Positions 2,986 to 12,138 of a DNA stretch of 64,000 nt are shown piece by piece (the first letter of the stretch is position 1; each line of letters starts with the position of its first letter). This DNA comes from an uncultured Clostridia bacterium (lineage in GTDB: Bacteria > Bacillota > Clostridia > Oscillospirales > Oscillospiraceae): the NCBI GenBank assembly GCA_947170435.1, contig CAMVTO010000001.1:60780-124779 (forward strand). Direction: 5' to 3'. The position numbers were made by a program, and so were the translations under genes. Under the pieces are notes generated by a model. It worked only from the letters and a program-made list of their open reading frames with translations. It ran no database searches and was not told where the DNA came from.

Positions 2986-3486
2986 ATGAAGACGAAACAA
3001 CTCACCACCTGCGCGATATTGGCGGCGCTGGCGCTGGCGCTTTCGTATGTGGAGGGCATGTTCCCGCTGCCCGTGCCGCTGCCGGGATTCAAGCTGGGCC
3101 TTGCCAACATCGTGACGCTGTTCGCGCTCTATACGCTCGGCGCGCCGCCGGCGCTGGCGATCCTGCTGGTGCGGGTGCTGCTGGGCGCGATGTTCGCGGG
3201 CAACGCCTCGGCGCTGATCTATTCGCTGCTGGGCGGCTTTTGCGCGATGCTGGTGATGATCGGGCTTTCGCGCATTCATAAGCTCTCGGTTTATGGCGTA
3301 TCCGTCGGCGGCGCGGCAGCGCACAACGCGGGGCAAGTCGCGGCGGCGATGCTGACGCTGGGCAGCGCCACGCCGGCTGTATATTTGCCGGTTTTGCTGA
3401 TCGTGGCGGTGTTCAGCGGCGCACTGACAGGGTTTGTGTGCAGCCTGCTGCTGGGGCGGAGGCTTTTCCGCCTGTGGGCGAAGTGA
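2986..3486 (+). CDS. Gx transporter family / heptaprenyl diphosphate synthase component I-like membrane protein
   Basis: LPGFKLGLANIV and GAAAHNAGQ motifs; multi-TM; usual partner of the NusG-II gene. Confidence 0.85.
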   Translation: MKTKQLTTCAILAALALALSYVEGMFPLPVPLPGFKLGLANIVTLFALYTLGAPPALAILLVRVLLGAMFAGNASALIYSLLGGFCAMLVMIGLSRIHKLSVYGVSVGGAAAHNAGQVAAAMLTLGSATPAVYLPVLLIVAVFSGALTGFVCSLLLGRRLFRLWAK

Positions 3487-3599: not shown

Positions 3600-4688
3600 A
3601 TGGACAAAAAAGACGAGATTATCCTCCAACAATTAGAGGTCATCCGCAGTATGTCGGAGAACAACCTCAAGCGCATGGGCACGGACTTCTGGGGCGCGCC
3701 CAAATCGAACGCGCCCGCCGCGCCCGCGTCAGGCGACGCCGCGGCAAAGGACGACAAAAAGACGCCCCCCACCGCCGCCAGCGGCGGCGAGGGCGGCGGG
3801 ACCAAGGAAGAGGAGCTGCCGCCGCCGGAGGACATCGCCGACCTCAAAGCGGAGCTGGACAGCTACATTGGGCTTGCCGATGTGAAGAAGGAGGTCAACA
3901 ACCTCATCAACATGGCGACGGTGTTCAAGCGCCGCCAGGAGGCGGGGCTGCCGACGACCGATTTCTCGCTGCACATGGTGTTCACGGGCAATCCCGGCAC
4001 CGGCAAGACCATGATCGCGCGGCTCATGGCGCGCATTTACCGCTCGCTGGGCATCCTGTCGAAGGGACAGCTCGTCGAGGTGGATCGCAGCGGGCTGGTC
4101 GCGGGCTACGTCGGCCAGACCGCCATCAAGACCCAGCAGCAGATCCAGAAGGCGCTCGGCGGCGTGCTGTTCATCGACGAAGCCTACGCCCTCAACGGCA
4201 AGAGCGACAACGACTTCGGACAGGAAGCCATCGACACGGTGCTTAAGGCGATGGAGGATCATCGCGACGACATTGTGGTGATCGTGGCGGGCTACGACGA
4301 GCTGATGGAGCGGTTCATCCACTCCAATCCGGGGCTGGAGTCCCGCTTCAACCGCTACCTGCACTTTGACGACTACTCCACCGACGAGATGGTGGAGATC
4401 TTCAAGCTCCAGTGCAAGAAGGGCAGCTATCAGCTCGCGGACGGCGTGGAGGACGAGGTGCGCGAGTTCATCGACGAGGCGAACGACGCCGGCGGCGTCA
4501 CATTCGGCAACGCCCGCGGCGTTCGCAACATCTTCGAGCAGATCCTCACTGAGCAGGCGAACCGCCTCGCCAAGCTGGACGAGTTCACAAAAGAGGACTT
4601 AATGACCATCACGGCGGAGGATGTGTTCCATGCCCGCGGTATGGACTACGACGCGCCGATGCCGGTGGCAGAGGAAGGGGCGCCGTAA
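3600..4688 (+). CDS. AAA+ ATPase, SpoVK/CbbX family
   Basis: HMVFTGNPGTGKT Walker A, GVLFIDEAY Walker B, LVAGYVGQTA, SNPGLESRF, FGNARGVRN. Confidence 0.9.
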   Translation: MDKKDEIILQQLEVIRSMSENNLKRMGTDFWGAPKSNAPAAPASGDAAAKDDKKTPPTAASGGEGGGTKEEELPPPEDIADLKAELDSYIGLADVKKEVNNLINMATVFKRRQEAGLPTTDFSLHMVFTGNPGTGKTMIARLMARIYRSLGILSKGQLVEVDRSGLVAGYVGQTAIKTQQQIQKALGGVLFIDEAYALNGKSDNDFGQEAIDTVLKAMEDHRDDIVVIVAGYDELMERFIHSNPGLESRFNRYLHFDDYSTDEMVEIFKLQCKKGSYQLADGVEDEVREFIDEANDAGGVTFGNARGVRNIFEQILTEQANRLAKLDEFTKEDLMTITAEDVFHARGMDYDAPMPVAEEGAP

Positions 4689-4751
4689 TCGAGGCAGCGC
4701 CCCGCTTGCCGCGACCGAACAGGGAAGCGGGAAGCGGCAGGCGCAACGGTG
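4689..4751 (+). repeat. Dispersed GC-rich repeat family 2, copy 1
   Basis: Near-identical to the reverse complement of 44831-44891. Confidence 0.85.
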
Positions 4752-4802
4752 TATTTACGACGCGCCGCTGAGCGTGGGAGAGGAACAATAATAAAACTCC
4801 GC

Positions 4803-4831
4803 TTGACAAAGCGGAGCGGAGCGGGTAATAT
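4803..4831 (+). promoter_or_regulatory. SigA-type promoter of antisense sRNA
   Basis: TTGACA(4803-4808)-17 bp-TAATAT(4826-4831); no ORF follows on this strand before a terminator. Confidence 0.75.
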
Positions 4832-4835
4832 AAAA

Positions 4836-4940
4836 GCAGAAGGGCGGCTGCGACAAGCGGCTTGGCCCAATCGCTAGTGGGTTAGTTGGTCATAAGACCA
4901 GACAACCGTCACCGTGCCGGGTGGCGGTTGTCCTTTTTTA
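4836..4940 (+). ncRNA. Putative antisense (antitoxin-like) sRNA of about 100 nt
   Basis: Lies between the promoter above and terminator GACAACCGTCACC-GTGCCG-GGTGGCGGTTGTC-CTTTTTT (4901-4938); overlaps the 3' end of the minus-strand peptide ORF. Confidence 0.65.
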
Positions 4941-4995
4941 TCCGCAACGAAAAAACATACCCGTGGATATGTAACGTCAGATAGAAAAAGTACAT
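4909..4995 (-). CDS. 28-aa peptide MYFFYLTLHIHGYVFSLRIKKDNRHPAR (type I toxin-like); absent from the ORF track
   Basis: Strong SD AGGAGGTG 5 nt before ATG; own promoter; hydrophobic/aromatic N-terminus and basic C-terminal tail. Confidence 0.7.
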   Translation of the reverse strand: MYFFYLTLHIHGYVFSLRIKKDNRHPAR

Positions 4996-5062
4996 GGCTC
5001 CACCTCCTTATCGAGGTGTAGCCAAACCGCCAACGCTTCGTCAGCGCCCTTCTGCAACATTT

Positions 5063-5091
5063 GTTATATAATAGTGAGGACAACCTGTCAA
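5063..5091 (-). promoter_or_regulatory. SigA-type promoter of peptide mRNA
   Basis: Minus strand TTGACA(5091-5086)-17 bp-TATAAC(5068-5063). Confidence 0.7.
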
Positions 5092-5157
5092 CAAAATAGG
5101 ACGGTTCAATCCTAATAAAAATAGGACATACAGTCATAATATCCATGAGGTGATATT

Positions 5158-5382
5158 GTGACGAAAATGCGGGAATTGCGAAAAGCACTCGGTTATACGC
5201 AGATCAAAATGCAATTTCTGACCGGGATTGACCAAAGCGCTTACTCAAAGCTGGAGCTGGGCAAGCGCAACATGAGCTTTGAGCAGTGCAGACAGATCGC
5301 GCTGGCGCTCAAGACCAGCATGGACTACCTTGCCGACCTGACGGACGACCCGAAGCCGTACCCGCGGAAAAAGCAGCCATGA
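5158..5382 (+). CDS. XRE-family helix-turn-helix regulator
   Basis: MRELRKALGYTQ...GIDQSAYSKLELGKR...TSMDYLADLTD; GAGGTG RBS before GTG. Confidence 0.88.
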   Translation: MTKMRELRKALGYTQIKMQFLTGIDQSAYSKLELGKRNMSFEQCRQIALALKTSMDYLADLTDDPKPYPRKKQP

Positions 5383-7343: not shown

Positions 7344-8381
7344 ATGGAATTGAGCGAGCGCAAAAAGCAAATACTGAAAGCGGTCGTCGAGCATTACATC
7401 GACAGCGCGGAGCCGGTCGGCTCCAAGCTGCTCGCGCAGGAGTTGGGCGTTTCGTCCGCGACGGTGCGCAACGAGTTCGCGGAGCTGTGCGACTTGGGTT
7501 ATTTGGAGCAGCCCCACACGTCCGCCGGGCGCGTGCCGTCGCCGCAGGGCTACCGGCTCTATGTCAACGAGCTGATGGAGCACCGCAGCGTCTCCGCCGA
7601 GGAGGCGGAGGGCATCGACGAAACGCTCCGCAGCAAGCTGATGGGCGGTGCGATCACCAACGCGGGACAGCTGGTGTCGTCCATTGTTCACTATCCGGCC
7701 TACTCCGTCACCGCGGGCAACGCGGGGCTGACGGTGGAACGCTTCGAGCTGATCCCTGTGGATGCCACGGGCTTCATCACCGTGGTGATGACAGACGACA
7801 AGAACGTCAAGAGCCAGCTGCAAAGCTCCGCGCTGCAATTCGACGCAGAGCGGCTGAGCGACCTCAAGAATCTGCTCAACACCCACTTTACCCACAAATC
7901 CCGGGCGGAGATGAGCGAGCACCTGATGAGCGTCAGCGACCAGCTGCCGCCGGAGCTGTTCCTCGTGCTCTCCAAGACGGTGGAGTACGCCGCCGGGATT
8001 CTGGACGCGGCGTCGCGGCGCGATGTCGTTACCACCGGCGCGAGCGAGATCCTGAAAATGCCGGAATATCGAGACGTGGACAAAGCCCACGAGCTGATGA
8101 CCTTCCTGGCAGACAACAAGGAACAGCTCCCCGTCCCGGAGGGCGACGGCCCGGTGCAGATCCTGATCGGCCCGGAAAACGTGGATCACGCGCTGCGGGA
8201 TACCAGCGTGGTGGTTGCCAGCTATGACATCGGCGACGGTATGCGCGGGCTGATCGGCGTAGTGGGGCCGACGCGCATGGACTACGCCACTGTGACCGCG
8301 CGGCTTTCGTACTTTGCCGAGAGTCTGACGAAGATGTTCGGCAAGGGCTTGCCGCCCGGACAAATCGAGGATAACACATAA
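7344..8381 (+). CDS. hrcA: Heat-inducible transcription repressor HrcA
   Basis: EPVGSK, SSATVRNE, QPHTSAGRVPS, GVVGPTRMDY; downstream of CIRCE. Confidence 0.97.
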   Translation: MELSERKKQILKAVVEHYIDSAEPVGSKLLAQELGVSSATVRNEFAELCDLGYLEQPHTSAGRVPSPQGYRLYVNELMEHRSVSAEEAEGIDETLRSKLMGGAITNAGQLVSSIVHYPAYSVTAGNAGLTVERFELIPVDATGFITVVMTDDKNVKSQLQSSALQFDAERLSDLKNLLNTHFTHKSRAEMSEHLMSVSDQLPPELFLVLSKTVEYAAGILDAASRRDVVTTGASEILKMPEYRDVDKAHELMTFLADNKEQLPVPEGDGPVQILIGPENVDHALRDTSVVVASYDIGDGMRGLIGVVGPTRMDYATVTARLSYFAESLTKMFGKGLPPGQIEDNT

Positions 8382-8396
8382 GGAGTATGAGGATAA

Positions 8397-8954
8397 ATGG
8401 CAGACGAAGAAAAGAAGGAAGAACAGGCGCCCGTTGCTGACGAGGCTCCCGAAGCAAAGGACGCCGCGGAAGCCGCCGAGCCGGAGACCTTCACCGTCAC
8501 GAAAGAGCAGATGGAGAAGATGGAGGTCGCGGCCAAGCAGCTTGCCGAACAGCAGGACAAATTCCTGCGCCTTGCCGCCGAGTACGACAACTACCGCAAG
8601 CGTACCGCCAAGGAAAAAGAAAACATCTACGCCGACGCGAAGATCGAGACCCTCACCGCGATGCTGCCGGTATACGACAATCTGGAGCGGGCGCTGGCGC
8701 AATTCGGCGACGACGATTCGCCCCACCGAAAGGGCGTGGAGATGATCTTCACCCAGTTCAAGGAGAGCCTGAGCAGGCTGGGCGTCAGCCCCATCGACGC
8801 GGTGGGTCAGCCCTTCGATCCGGAAAAGCACAACGCCGTGATGCACATCGAAGACGACGCGGTGGGCGAAAATACCGTGGTCGAGGTGTTGCAGCAGGGC
8901 TTCACGCTGGGCGACAAGGTGCTGCGGTTCGCAATCGTCAAGGTCGCGAATTGA
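8397..8954 (+). CDS. grpE: Nucleotide exchange factor GrpE
   Basis: LRLAAEYDNYRKR, FDPEKHNAV, QQGFTLGDKVLRFAIVKV. Confidence 0.96.
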   Translation: MADEEKKEEQAPVADEAPEAKDAAEAAEPETFTVTKEQMEKMEVAAKQLAEQQDKFLRLAAEYDNYRKRTAKEKENIYADAKIETLTAMLPVYDNLERALAQFGDDDSPHRKGVEMIFTQFKESLSRLGVSPIDAVGQPFDPEKHNAVMHIEDDAVGENTVVEVLQQGFTLGDKVLRFAIVKVAN

Positions 8955-8963
8955 ACGGCCTTT

Positions 8964-8979
8964 TGTTTCACGTGAAACG
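8964..8979. promoter_or_regulatory. parS centromere-like site (ParB/Spo0J binding)
   Basis: TGTTTCACGTGAAACG, 15/16 match to the consensus TGTTTCACGTGAAACA; intergenic. Confidence 0.85.
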
Positions 8980-9052
8980 ATTTTTGATAGAATTAGAAGT
9001 TATTCAATAAAAACAGTCTATAATAATTGACAGATATTAGGAGGCAAACATT

Positions 9053-10921
9053 ATGTCTAAAGTAATCGGAATCGACCTTGGTACTACCAACAGCTGCGTG
9101 GCGGTCATGGAGGGCGGCGAGGCCGTCGTTATTGCCAACGCCGAGGGCAACCGCACCACACCGTCCGTCGTCGCGTTCAGCAAGACCGGCGAGCGCATGG
9201 TGGGTCAGGTCGCAAAGCGTCAGGCGATCACCAATCCGGAGCGCACCATTTCCTCTATCAAGCGCGAGATGGGCACCGACCACCGCGTGGAGATCGACGG
9301 CAAGAAGCTCACCCCGCAGGAAATCAGCGCCATGATCCTCCAGAAGCTCAAGGCGGACGCCGAGAGCTATCTGGGCGGCACCGTCACCGAAGCGGTTATC
9401 ACCGTTCCCGCGTACTTCACCGACTCCCAGCGTCAGGCCACCAAGGACGCCGGCAAGATCGCCGGCCTTGACGTCAAGCGCATCATCAACGAGCCGACGG
9501 CGGCGGCGCTCGCCTACGGCGTGGACAAGGAGGGCCAGCCGCAGAAGATCATGGTCTACGACCTCGGCGGCGGCACGTTCGACGTGTCCATCCTCGACAT
9601 CGACGACGGCGTGATCGAGGTGCTGGCCACCGCGGGCAACAACCGTCTCGGCGGCGACGACTTCGACGAGTGCATCATGAAATACCTCGTGGACGAGTTC
9701 AAGAAGGCGGAGGGCATCGACCTGTCCACCGACAAGGTCGCCATGCAGCGCTTGAAGGAGGCCGCCGAAAAGGCGAAGATCGAGCTCTCCGGCGTCACGA
9801 CCTCCAACGTCAACCTGCCGTATATCACGGCGGACGCCACCGGCCCGAAGCATCTGGACGTGACGCTCACGCGCGCGAAGTTCAACGAGCTGACCGCGCA
9901 CCTCGTCGAGGCGACCATGGGTCCCGTGCGTCAGGCTATGAGCGACGCCGGCCTCAAGGCGGGCGATCTCGCCAAGGTGCTGATGGTGGGCGGCTCCAGC
10001 CGTATCCCCGCCGTGCAGGACGCGGTGAAGAACTTCACCGGCAAGGAGCCGTTCAAGGGCATCAACCCCGACGAGTGCGTCGCCATGGGCGCGGCGCTCC
10101 AGGCAGGCGTGCTGACCGGCGACGTCAAGGGCCTGCTGCTGCTCGACGTTACCCCGCTGAGCCTCGGCATTGAGACCATGGGCGGCGTTTGCACCAAGCT
10201 CATCGAGCGCAACACCACCATCCCCGTCAAGAAGAGCCAGATCTTCTCCACCGCCGCGGACGGCCAGACCTCCGTCGAGGTCAACGTCCTCCAGGGCGAG
10301 CGCGAGATGGCGGCGGCGAACAAGAGCCTCGGCCGCTTCCACCTCGACGGCATCGCTCCGGCGCGCCGCGGCGTGCCGCAGATCGAGGTCACGTTCGACA
10401 TCGACGCCAACGGCATCGTGAACGTCAGCGCCAAGGACCTCGGCACCGGCCAGGAGCAGCACATCACCATCACCGCGTCCTCCAACATGAGCAAGGAGGA
10501 CATCGAAAAGGCGGTCAAGGAGGCGGAGCAGTTCGCCGCCGAGGACGCCAAGGCGAAAGAGAAGGTCGAGATTCGCAACGCCGCCGACCAGATGGTCTAT
10601 CAGAGCGAAAAGACCCTCGGCGAGGTGGGCGACAAGCTGCCTGCCGACGAGAAGGCAAAGGTGCAAGCGGGCGTCGACAAGCTCAAGGAGGCCCTCAAGG
10701 GCGATGACACCGCCGCGATCAAGGCCGCGACGGATGAGCTGACCCAGATGTTCTATGCCATGAGCGAGAAGCTCTATCAGGGCACGAATCCGCAGGGCGG
10801 CGCGCAGGGCGCTTACGGCGCCGGCCCCGACATGGGCAATATGGGCGGTCAGCCGAACGGCGGTCAGCAGTATTACGACGCTGACTACAAAGTGGTTGAC
10901 GAGGACGACCAGAACAAGTAA
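9053..10921 (+). CDS. dnaK: Chaperone DnaK
   Basis: [39 protein letters not shown]. Confidence 0.99.
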
Positions 10922-10995
10922 AATCAGATCAAATACCACAGCGGGGACGGCTCAACCGAGCCGCCCCCGAATGTGGCGTTTTAGGGGAGTTATCC

Positions 10996-12138
10996 ATGGC
11001 AGATCATAAACGGGATTATTACGAGGTGTTGGGCCTGCAAAAGGGCGCCTCGGAGGAAGAGATCAAAAAAGCGTATAAAAAGCTGGCGCGAAAGTACCAT
11101 CCTGACATGAACCCCGGCGACAAAGAGGCCGAGGAGAAGTTTAAGGAGGTCAACGAGGCCAACGAAGTGCTCTCTGACCCGGAGAAGAAGGCGCGCTATG
11201 ACCAGTTCGGCTTCGCCGGCGTCGACCCGAGCTACGGCGCGGGCGCGGGCGGCGCCTACGGCGGCGGCATGGACTTTGACTTCGGAGATTTGGGCGATAT
11301 CTTCGGCAGCTTTTTTGGCGGCGGCTTCGGTGGCTCCCGCGCGAATCCGAACGCGCCGCAGCGCGGCGAAAGCCTGCGTACCAGCGTGAATATCACGTTC
11401 GAGGAGGCCTGCTTCGGCTGTGAGAAGGAGGTCATCATCGAGCGCGTGGAGCAGTGCGATGATTGCCGCGGCAGCGGCTGCGAGAAGGGGACCACCGCGG
11501 AGGTCTGTCAGGAATGCGGCGGCCGCGGCGTGGTGCAGCGCCGCCAGCAGACGCCGCTGGGTTTCATGGCCAGCACGGCGCCGTGCCTCAAGTGCGGCGG
11601 CAAGGGCAAGATCATTCACAAGCCCTGCAAGACCTGCGGCGGCCGGGGTCAGGTGCGCAAGCGCAAGACCATCAAGGTCAACATTCCCGCGGGCATTGAC
11701 AACGGCCAGACCATCTCGCTGCGCTCTCAGGGCAACGCCGGCAAGAACGGCGGTCCGGCGGGCGACCTGCTCATCGTCATCGCTGTGCGGCCCCACGAAA
11801 TCTTCCGCCGCGAGGGCACCAGCATTCTCTGCGAAGCGCCGATCACCTTTGCACAGGCGGCGCTGGGCGCGGAGCTGGAGATTCCCACCATCGACGGCAA
11901 GGTGAAGTATACCATCCCGGAGGGGACGCAGTCCGGCACAACGTTCCGGCTCAAGGGCAAGGGCGTACCCGGCATGGGCGGACGCGCGCGCGGCGATCAG
12001 TATGTGACCGTGTACATCGAGACCCCGCGCAACCTCAACAAGGAGCAGAAAGCTGCGCTCAAAAAGTTCAGCGAGCTGTTGGGCGAGAAAAACTACGAAG
12101 AAGACAAGGGCGGGTTTTTCGGCAAATTCAAGAAATAG
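10996..12138 (+). CDS. dnaJ: Chaperone DnaJ
   Basis: J domain with HPD, G/F-rich region, four CxxCxGxG repeats. Confidence 0.98.

Follow-up and report, generated by a model that had tools for sequence, protein, structure and literature searches.

A probable BsrG/SR4-like type I toxin-antitoxin cassette of gut Clostridia encodes a predicted β-hairpin peptide in an RNA frame shared with membrane-helix peptides

The 64,000-nucleotide stretch of DNA from an uncultured Clostridia bacterium that was analysed here (the window) carries a cassette of about 300 bases whose neighbours are an AAA ATPase gene on one side and, on the other, an XRE gene followed by a ComF-like gene (a label which is our reading of PF00156 and PF18912). 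The cassette has zero matches in Rfam or Pfam. What does it encode, and how is its expression controlled? A sequence-only reading had proposed a hidden unit resembling toxin-antitoxin systems of type I, where the mRNA of a small peptide faces a convergent antisense RNA. We conclude that the cassette is probably a toxin-antitoxin system of type I and of the BsrG/SR4 kind encoding a predicted β-hairpin peptide, and that its RNA frame also carries membrane-helix peptides at the same phage sites. The features of the cassette are collected in Table 1.

Table 1. Features of the cassette, in positions of the window
Feature	Position	Strand	Basis
Predicted peptide-mRNA promoter	5063..5091	-	TTGACA 5091-5086, 17-nt spacer, -10 TATAAC 5068-5063; by sequence
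Predicted peptide mRNA, ~267 nt	4790..5056	-	Ends inferred from promoter and terminator; fold z -7.86
5' arm of long-range 5'-3' mRNA helix	5021..5055	-	Fold; covariation in helices 1-2
Shine-Dalgarno (SD)-sequestering hairpin	4995..5024	-	SD AGGAGGTG 5008-5001; fold
28-aa ORF, predicted amphipathic β-hairpin with cationic tail	4909..4995	-	Strands at residues 3-10 and 13-20; turn H11-G12
3' arm of long-range mRNA helix	4836..4868	-	Fold, covariation; complement of antisense RNA 5' end
Predicted mRNA terminator	4790..4817	-	Hairpin 4817-4796; loop contains antisense -35 box
Predicted antisense promoter, TTGACA-17-TAATAT	4803..4831	+	Promoter scan
Predicted antisense RNA, ~102 nt	4838..4939	+	Promoter and terminator; wholly inside predicted mRNA
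Antisense intrinsic terminator	4901..4939	+	13-pair stem 4901-4932, U-tract to 4939

The 28-residue open reading frame (ORF) is intact on the minus strand where the sequence-only reading had placed it (4995-4909). The same reading had described two convergent SigA promoters. This held for the plus strand; on the minus strand, the -35 box is perfect (5091-5086) but the -10 box, TATAAC (5068-5063), lacks its last T, and the promoter scanner made no call. Among 104 relatives, the best toxin-side promoter scores 10-12 out of 12 in 42, while an antisense promoter of at least 10/12 is present in 49 of 51 leader-anchored loci. The plus-strand RNA had been estimated at about 100 nt, in agreement with the length predicted here (fold z -4.74) and with the median of about 94 nt in the 104 relatives; its terminator, read on the opposite strand, corresponds to the last 10 codons and the stop codon of the ORF, again as proposed. 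Two elements had been missed: the minus-strand terminator (4817-4796) and the pairing between the two ends of the mRNA (5055-5021 with 4868-4836). A similar terminator near the antisense -35 box is found in 50 of 104 relatives versus 9 of 73 controls; an mRNA terminator overlaps that box in 43 of the 104, and an earlier terminator-like hairpin is present in 36. Related cassettes also occur in contigs of RNA libraries, which carry no strand or level information and do not show the window copy as transcribed. In run X4, a 178-nt stretch that may be DNA covers 4803-4980 and shows 8 differences; runs X2 and X3 yielded short pieces of related cassettes. The lower GC content of the cassette, which had been listed among its features, is real (50% versus 63-68% in the flanking genes) but is not distinctive because five other intergenic gaps of the window span 30-57%, and it was rejected as evidence. 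Also rejected was the XRE gene (5158-5382) as a part of the cassette, since it is found at the same site without the cassette in L657 and L667; HTH proteins make up 2 of the 114 neighbours at other cassette loci.

The RNA frame was analysed by covariation in 56 of 104 diverse cassettes, the consensus structure being derived from the same sequences. It consists of a 25-pair helix joining the 5' and 3' ends of the mRNA, the SD hairpin and the terminator, with 91% of cells paired and two-sided changes at 24 of 44 pairs. None of 500 shuffles scored as high, and slid controls reached 36-48%. The terminator helix (helix 4) is 97.6% paired. In the arms, 178 G-U were counted on the mRNA strand versus 48 A-C, which makes them a signature of RNA. 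In these alignments, the predicted SD hairpin, 5'-3' helix and antisense terminator are conserved with compensatory changes. The SD of the window lies, as the sequence-only reading had it, in the hairpin CACCTC-GATAAG-GAGGTG (5018-5001), and the full stem, with 11 of 12 pairs formed, runs up to the A of the ATG (z -4.35); in relatives, the SD is locally paired in 97 of 103. Opening the SD-AUG region is predicted to cost a median of 15.1 kcal/mol (91 of the 104 cassettes) versus 7.4 kcal/mol in control genes (150 of 558), and the 13.6 kcal/mol of the window is reached by 11 of these 150 controls. With the antisense RNA bound, the SD stem of the window is predicted to tighten, in the manner of SR4, from 13.6 to 18.3 kcal/mol; over the family, the median change is +0.55, with 46 up and 30 down of 91.

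Is the ORF within this frame a gene? Coding was assessed in 135 promoter-selected loci with an SD core and in 125 distinct coding sequences. In 131 of the 135, at spacings of 57-90 nt, the start codon that comes next shares the frame of the tail; it is out of frame in 2 and missing in 2. The in-frame conservation which had been suggested as a check is indeed observed. Outside the antisense RNA, dN/dS is 0.048-0.108 depending on the divergence ceiling (125 distinct coding sequences; 209-1993 non-independent pairs), and T at codon position 2 is kept at alternate peptide positions. Judged from these substitution patterns, the hairpin ORF is a real gene under purifying selection. Residues T7 and H9, both on the polar face, are nearly invariant (124/125 and 121/125, respectively), and the window ORF keeps the alternating pattern together with the T7, H9 and G12 positions.

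The tail of the peptide is of a different nature. A leader-anchored scan gave 87 matches, 51 of them distinct (47 hairpin-type, 3 helix-type and 1 disrupted). Of 46 full-length tails, 45 use the same codons for NRH, with not one synonymous change. Where the payload is a transmembrane peptide, the element encoding NRH sits immediately behind the stop codon (63 of 65 loci). A single compensatory base pair (columns 174/181) underlies the SAK and PGR/PAR endings, each corresponding to one of its two states. NRH is fixed by RNA structure and is thus not readable as a protein motif, so that the search motif put forward earlier, LHI.G...S.R.K..NRH, mixes protein and RNA constraint at its end. Read-through into the tail is kept in 113 of 115 peptides, the median net charge is +5 (98 peptides), and the charge of the tail may matter. 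Naturally tail-less peptides are encoded in L142 and L144.

A β-hairpin around an HG turn had been suggested from the alternation of hydrophobic residues, and the structure prediction proposed as a check is in line with it. AlphaFold2, run with 96 sequences on a model which included two extra upstream residues, gave two strands, at native residues 3-10 and 13-20, with a core pLDDT of 95 and a pTM of 0.36. Hydrophobic periodicity agrees and is that of a strand more than of a helix, the hydrophobic moments being 2.7 and 2.1 at 170 degrees versus 1.0 and 0.7 at 100 degrees. In the predicted hairpin, F4, L6, L8 and I10 on one strand and Y13, F15, L17 and I19 on the other form an all-hydrophobic face. 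Neither AlphaFold2 nor hydropathy gave a single transmembrane α-helix as in the Hol-Tox/SprG/TxpA family, a 17-residue hydropathy of 1.6 being reached by just 7 of 98 peptides. The peptide is therefore predicted to be an amphipathic β-hairpin and not a transmembrane helix. Cross-strand covariation within the peptide gave no clean register, a cross-strand Arg-swap pair ranking 12th, and a four-copy complex prediction (score 0.22, mark 0.42) provided no evidence either way. Foldseek returned no match at E 0.001 in the PDB, and the best score in the ESM Atlas was 0.77, to unnamed clusters.

Sequence searches gave a similar picture. The hairpin peptide belongs to no Pfam, NCBIfam or PDB family; a PDB sequence search gave 0 matches at E 10, and PHROGs yielded just two values, E 0.011 and 0.19, for one relative. 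A profile search (E 0.001) retrieved 363 clusters at 50% identity. For most of the best 150 of these, the match falls at the C-terminal end of a gene called longer than the peptide; we read these as wrong start calls. None of the 8 cluster members inspected is named. Regarding known toxin families, a comparison which had also been suggested, none of 96 hairpin peptides matched Hol_Tox (PF16935), the genome's own genes include no Hol_Tox above cut-off, and a profile comparison of hairpin and helix payloads gave a probability of 0.6%; in-frame descent of the hairpin from Hol-Tox, which had been suggested by eye, is not supported. YrzI (PF09501) is weakly resembled over the N-terminal 12-17 positions by 7 of the 96 members (best E 0.009), and the YrzI/SpyT profile reached at best 16.6 bits versus a curated cut-off of 23, over profile positions 2-13 of 45.

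How widespread is the cassette? A DNA search gave matches in 8 of 36 congeners and in 1 of 24 genomes of other families. A hairpin-pattern scan listed at least 122 viral and at least 120 GTDB stretches, out of an estimated total of about 130 and 2200, respectively; among the stretches listed, the ORF is intact in 66 viral and 61 GTDB distinct loci. Carriers in GTDB are mostly labelled Oscillospiraceae, Lachnospiraceae, Ruminococcaceae or Clostridia, and four Bacteroidales. The antisense promoter (at least 10/12) is present in 163 of 218 distinct hairpin matches, and an SD with an ATG ORF in the tail frame is found in 124 of the 156 with promoter and enough upstream DNA, versus 6 of 55 without promoter. 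From these comparisons, the cassette is a member of a large unannotated family of gut Clostridia and their phages. The family is patchy, because even draws over class and order found few carriers: 3 weak matches in 299 other genomes for the class, and 2 in 301 for the order, the latter with a strict pattern that misses the window too. Neighbouring genes (114 ORFs at 57 loci with long flanks) are unrelated to each other and include housekeeping genes as well as integrases and genes for tails and lysis; no phage genes lie beside the window copy. Of 29 congener loci around the ComF-like gene, 8 also have the AAA gene; 7 of these 8 lack the cassette and the eighth, in G011, holds a relic of it. 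One Vescimonas replicon has seven cassette places, and the match in Vescimonas fastidiosa (L678) is unannotated; Gemmiger formicilis (L185/L188) is another cultured carrier. As far as genome comparison goes, the cassette is accessory.

The genome of the window has two further copies, an intact paralog on contig C40 and an antisense-only relic on C47. The C40 paralog (G000:C40 ~9116-9358, L011) encodes a 27-residue hairpin peptide; its terminator loop is common with the window copy and the middle of its antisense RNA differs. Contigs of X1 and X12 join across about 450 nt at this paralog, suggesting an empty allele. The C47 copy (~3129-3270) consists of the antisense half (promoter, 5' stem and terminator) with no leader or intact ORF, as do L010, L013, L172, L208 and L235. 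Such antisense-only copies may act in trans against incoming cassettes, or may be decay relics. Tandem arrays were also seen: L143 has five matches of the hairpin type, L544 has three to the promoter pattern, and L153, L197, L233 and L248 have pairs. The contigs labelled Bacteroidales or Bacteroidaceae (L153, L180, L197 and L233) may be mis-binned Clostridia DNA.

The frame is not restricted to hairpin peptides. Scans anchored on the antisense promoter gave 247 matches, 184 of them distinct with upstream DNA, and in these 184 cassettes the payload was classified as helix in 65, hairpin in 40 and other in 9, with 70 unclassed by the parser (many of them helix ORFs by eye). Hol_Tox was matched by 4 of 56 distinct helix peptides at E 0.01, 2 of them above cut-off, and two further unnamed helix groups are present among the payloads. 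In the leader-anchored set, the payloads of L257, L303 and L331 are Hol_Tox peptides that score above cut-off, and they sit in the same frame. The siblings L331 and L303 also match BsrG of Rfam (RF01412) at E 7e-6 and 7e-5, with 32-35 bits versus a gathering score of 55 and with a match that includes coding sequence; for the window and three hairpin loci, RF01412 gave no match. What is new here is that, in these sequences, one RNA frame carries both hairpin peptides and transmembrane peptides, the latter in part exceeding the Hol-Tox (PF16935) cut-off. A comparison of 218 cassettes gave 104 pairs with both outer flanks in common, of which 75 are hairpin-hairpin, 14 other-other and 15 mixed, i.e. 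a hairpin versus another payload, the mixed pairs coming from three or more separate sites. In L257/L285 and L038/L043, the flanks, promoters and arms are near-identical and the cassettes differ only from the SD hairpin to the antisense terminator; L043 has both payload kinds, 1.2 kb apart. Payloads thus differ between phage sites that are otherwise near-identical in sequence, and this same-site swap is the best evidence, drawn from sequence comparison, for the hairpin being a toxin. The exchange likely proceeds when paralogous cassettes recombine through their conserved arms. We see about even chances for the fuller reading, namely a β-hairpin type I toxin family in a modular Clostridia frame that would trade payloads (hairpin, Hol-Tox and at least two unnamed helix families) via recombination in the pairing arms, so that toxin, SD hairpin and antitoxin specificity region would be replaced in one step.

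Other payloads were seen in the same frame. Unnamed helix peptides with a KAC/KAR-like end and no Pfam match occur in L598, L550, L422, L404, L043 and about 40 loci, and are a candidate for a further type I toxin family. L401, L414, L460, L406, L417 and others carry short unnamed helix peptides starting with MEY or MDY, some with longer leaders containing an extra hairpin. The 34-residue payloads of L465 (323-424) and L479 (415-516) have a hydrophobic N-terminal stretch followed by an alternating, β-hairpin-like C-terminal one and score E 0.14 or worse with the hairpin profile. Finally, a Synergistaceae contig (L148, 1545-1616) has a different 24-residue peptide which ends before the hairpin and matches no family.

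Which known system does this arrangement resemble most? Published systems are compared here from the accessible portions of the articles cited. The sequence-only reading had likened the architecture to TxpA/RatA. The type I layout is supported by the conserved frame, the covarying helices and the payload exchange, but BsrG/SR4 of the Bacillus subtilis phage SPbeta is the closer model. Convergent genes and a prophage location are common to both, and the topology of bsrG mRNA, probed there and predicted here, is the same: a 5'-3' helix, a local SD stem, a stop-codon hairpin that is also the antitoxin terminator, and a terminal terminator (PMC3834814). SR4 differs in being 183 nt long with a non-complementary 5' stem-loop, whereas the antisense RNA here is about 100 nt and, in the window, lies wholly inside the mRNA (PMC3834814). 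The peptide differs as well, being a predicted β-hairpin with no BsrG-like helix, and its ORF reads through the terminator hairpin. In TxpA/RatA, EF3263 and SprG/SprF, as here, a cis antisense RNA overlaps the 3' end (its length being about 110 nt in EF3263), the peptide is small and cationic, and the distribution is mobile and multi-copy (PMC2887945, PMC4147584, PMC8594479). Hol_Tox peptides occupy the same frame, while hairpin peptides have neither a transmembrane segment nor a Hol_Tox match. The type I systems of Clostridioides difficile are likewise from Clostridia, prophage-borne, with a convergent antisense RNA and a positively charged tail; as described, their toxins have a hydrophobic N-terminal transmembrane region, unlike the hairpin (PMC6563280, PMC7699646). 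SpyT (YrzI, PF09501) of B. subtilis is a small toxic peptide with a weak likeness, at profile positions 2-13, to the region of the hairpin turn, but it is longer, is controlled by a peptide antitoxin and RNase, and the available text describes no antisense RNA for it (PMC12067863).

On this basis, we are confident that the peptide is translated and antisense-controlled, and consider it likely to be toxic to its host; if it is, the membrane has a somewhat better than even chance of being the target. The folded mRNA would be long-lived and poorly translated. An antisense RNA of about 100 nt, made from the stronger promoter, would pair with the 3' half of the mRNA, starting probably at the terminator loop as SR4 does, and RNase III would cut the duplex. 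Once the antisense supply stops, through loss of the prophage or region or through stress, the peptide would be made. In the least supported steps, the cationic tail would attract the peptide to the membrane from the inside, the hydrophobic face would insert, and edge-to-edge association of hairpins might build a sheet or small pore, leading to growth arrest. For transcription, cleavage by RNase III, toxicity and action at the membrane, we argue from the accessible descriptions of BsrG/SR4, TxpA/RatA and EF3263 (PMC4147584, PMC8309996, PMC2887945). The conserved T7 and H9 of the polar face would be explained equally well by a specific binding partner and by a membrane pore.

This last point bears on an alternative that we regard as unlikely: under the same antisense control, the peptide would be a non-lethal regulator which adds a β-strand to a protein of the host or of the phage, through which DNA uptake, superinfection or sporulation, for instance, might be blocked. 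ComI is described as such a regulator for competence. Sibling payloads weakly score the ComI model NF052249 (E 2e-4 to 0.02, far below cut-off), which together with the near-invariance of T7 and H9 would suit a regulator. Published peptides point both ways: YhzE-2 has an antisense RNA, yet is not toxic (PMC2887945), and the weak YrzI likeness of a few members could be counted in favour of a regulator, were YrzI not itself toxic (PMC12067863), both as given in the accessible text. The triple lock on expression and the antisense-only relics, which are typical of toxic payloads, and the unrelated neighbours, which offer no pathway link, argue against a regulator.

Two further readings concern the cassette as DNA and the window copy itself. 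The arms are inverted repeats at the DNA level between two facing promoters, and the middle segment might then be a flippable switch, with the ORF incidental or phase-varied. We find this hardly credible, and rejected it: all 104 same-site pairs among the 218 cassettes are in the same orientation and none is inverted, and the single cross-flank match is non-reciprocal, is 75% alike and has each promoter type on its usual side. Moreover, joints over the window were absent from four runs, no recombinase accompanies the cassette regularly (integrases account for 2 of 114 neighbours), and both the G-U bias of the mRNA strand and the purifying selection on the ORF speak against a switch. It is also very unlikely, if slightly less so, that the window copy is a decaying silent member whose toxin promoter is crippled, so that only antisense RNA would be made, guarding against incoming phage cassettes. 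The imperfect -10 box, the relic at the same site in G011, the antisense-only copy on C47 and the lack of flanking phage genes are what such decay might leave behind; against it stand an intact ORF that has kept the alternating pattern, T7, H9 and G12, and helices that are all intact.

If the peptide is toxic, as we favour, it would represent a new toxin fold, carried by the Oscillospiraceae, Lachnospiraceae and Ruminococcaceae that abound in the gut and by their prophages; no β-hairpin fold was met among the type I toxins described in the text available. Membrane-acting type I toxins are described as transmembrane α-helices (PMC8309996), and the main searches for type I toxin families selected hydrophobic helices, so that a β-hairpin family would have been missed (PMC2887945, both from accessible text). 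No published description of the hairpin family was found, including in the accessible part of PMC10491270, and an anonymous listing is possible in Sberro, GMSC, sORFdb, T1TAdb and the Fozo tables, which lay outside the search; six motifs were absent from the part of the PMC8040213 supplements searched, and literature matches to peptide motifs were unrelated by title. With 25-28 residues and no cysteine, the hairpin lends itself to synthesis and testing. The swaps found in nature at identical sites offer matched pairs with which to study what selection favours in type I toxins, and they illustrate a way in which new toxin-antitoxin specificities can come about, while the RNA frame can serve as a search key for further unnamed payload families.

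Some observations were also made on the surroundings of the cassette. The junction between the AAA and ComF-like genes is a variable insertion site. The XRE gene occurs there with no cassette in some congeners (L652, L657 and L667), and G011 has an apparently different small regulator-like ORF in its place. Repeated AATAGGAC boxes lie upstream of the XRE HTH gene (window 5093-5382). Past the AAA gene, at 4650-4785, lie a GC-rich hairpin and a direct repeat of 27 nt that is imperfect and has a spacing of 109; both recur in L650 and L658. Further along, at 7344-12138, the ORF list reads by eye as an ordinary hrcA-grpE-dnaK-dnaJ operon.
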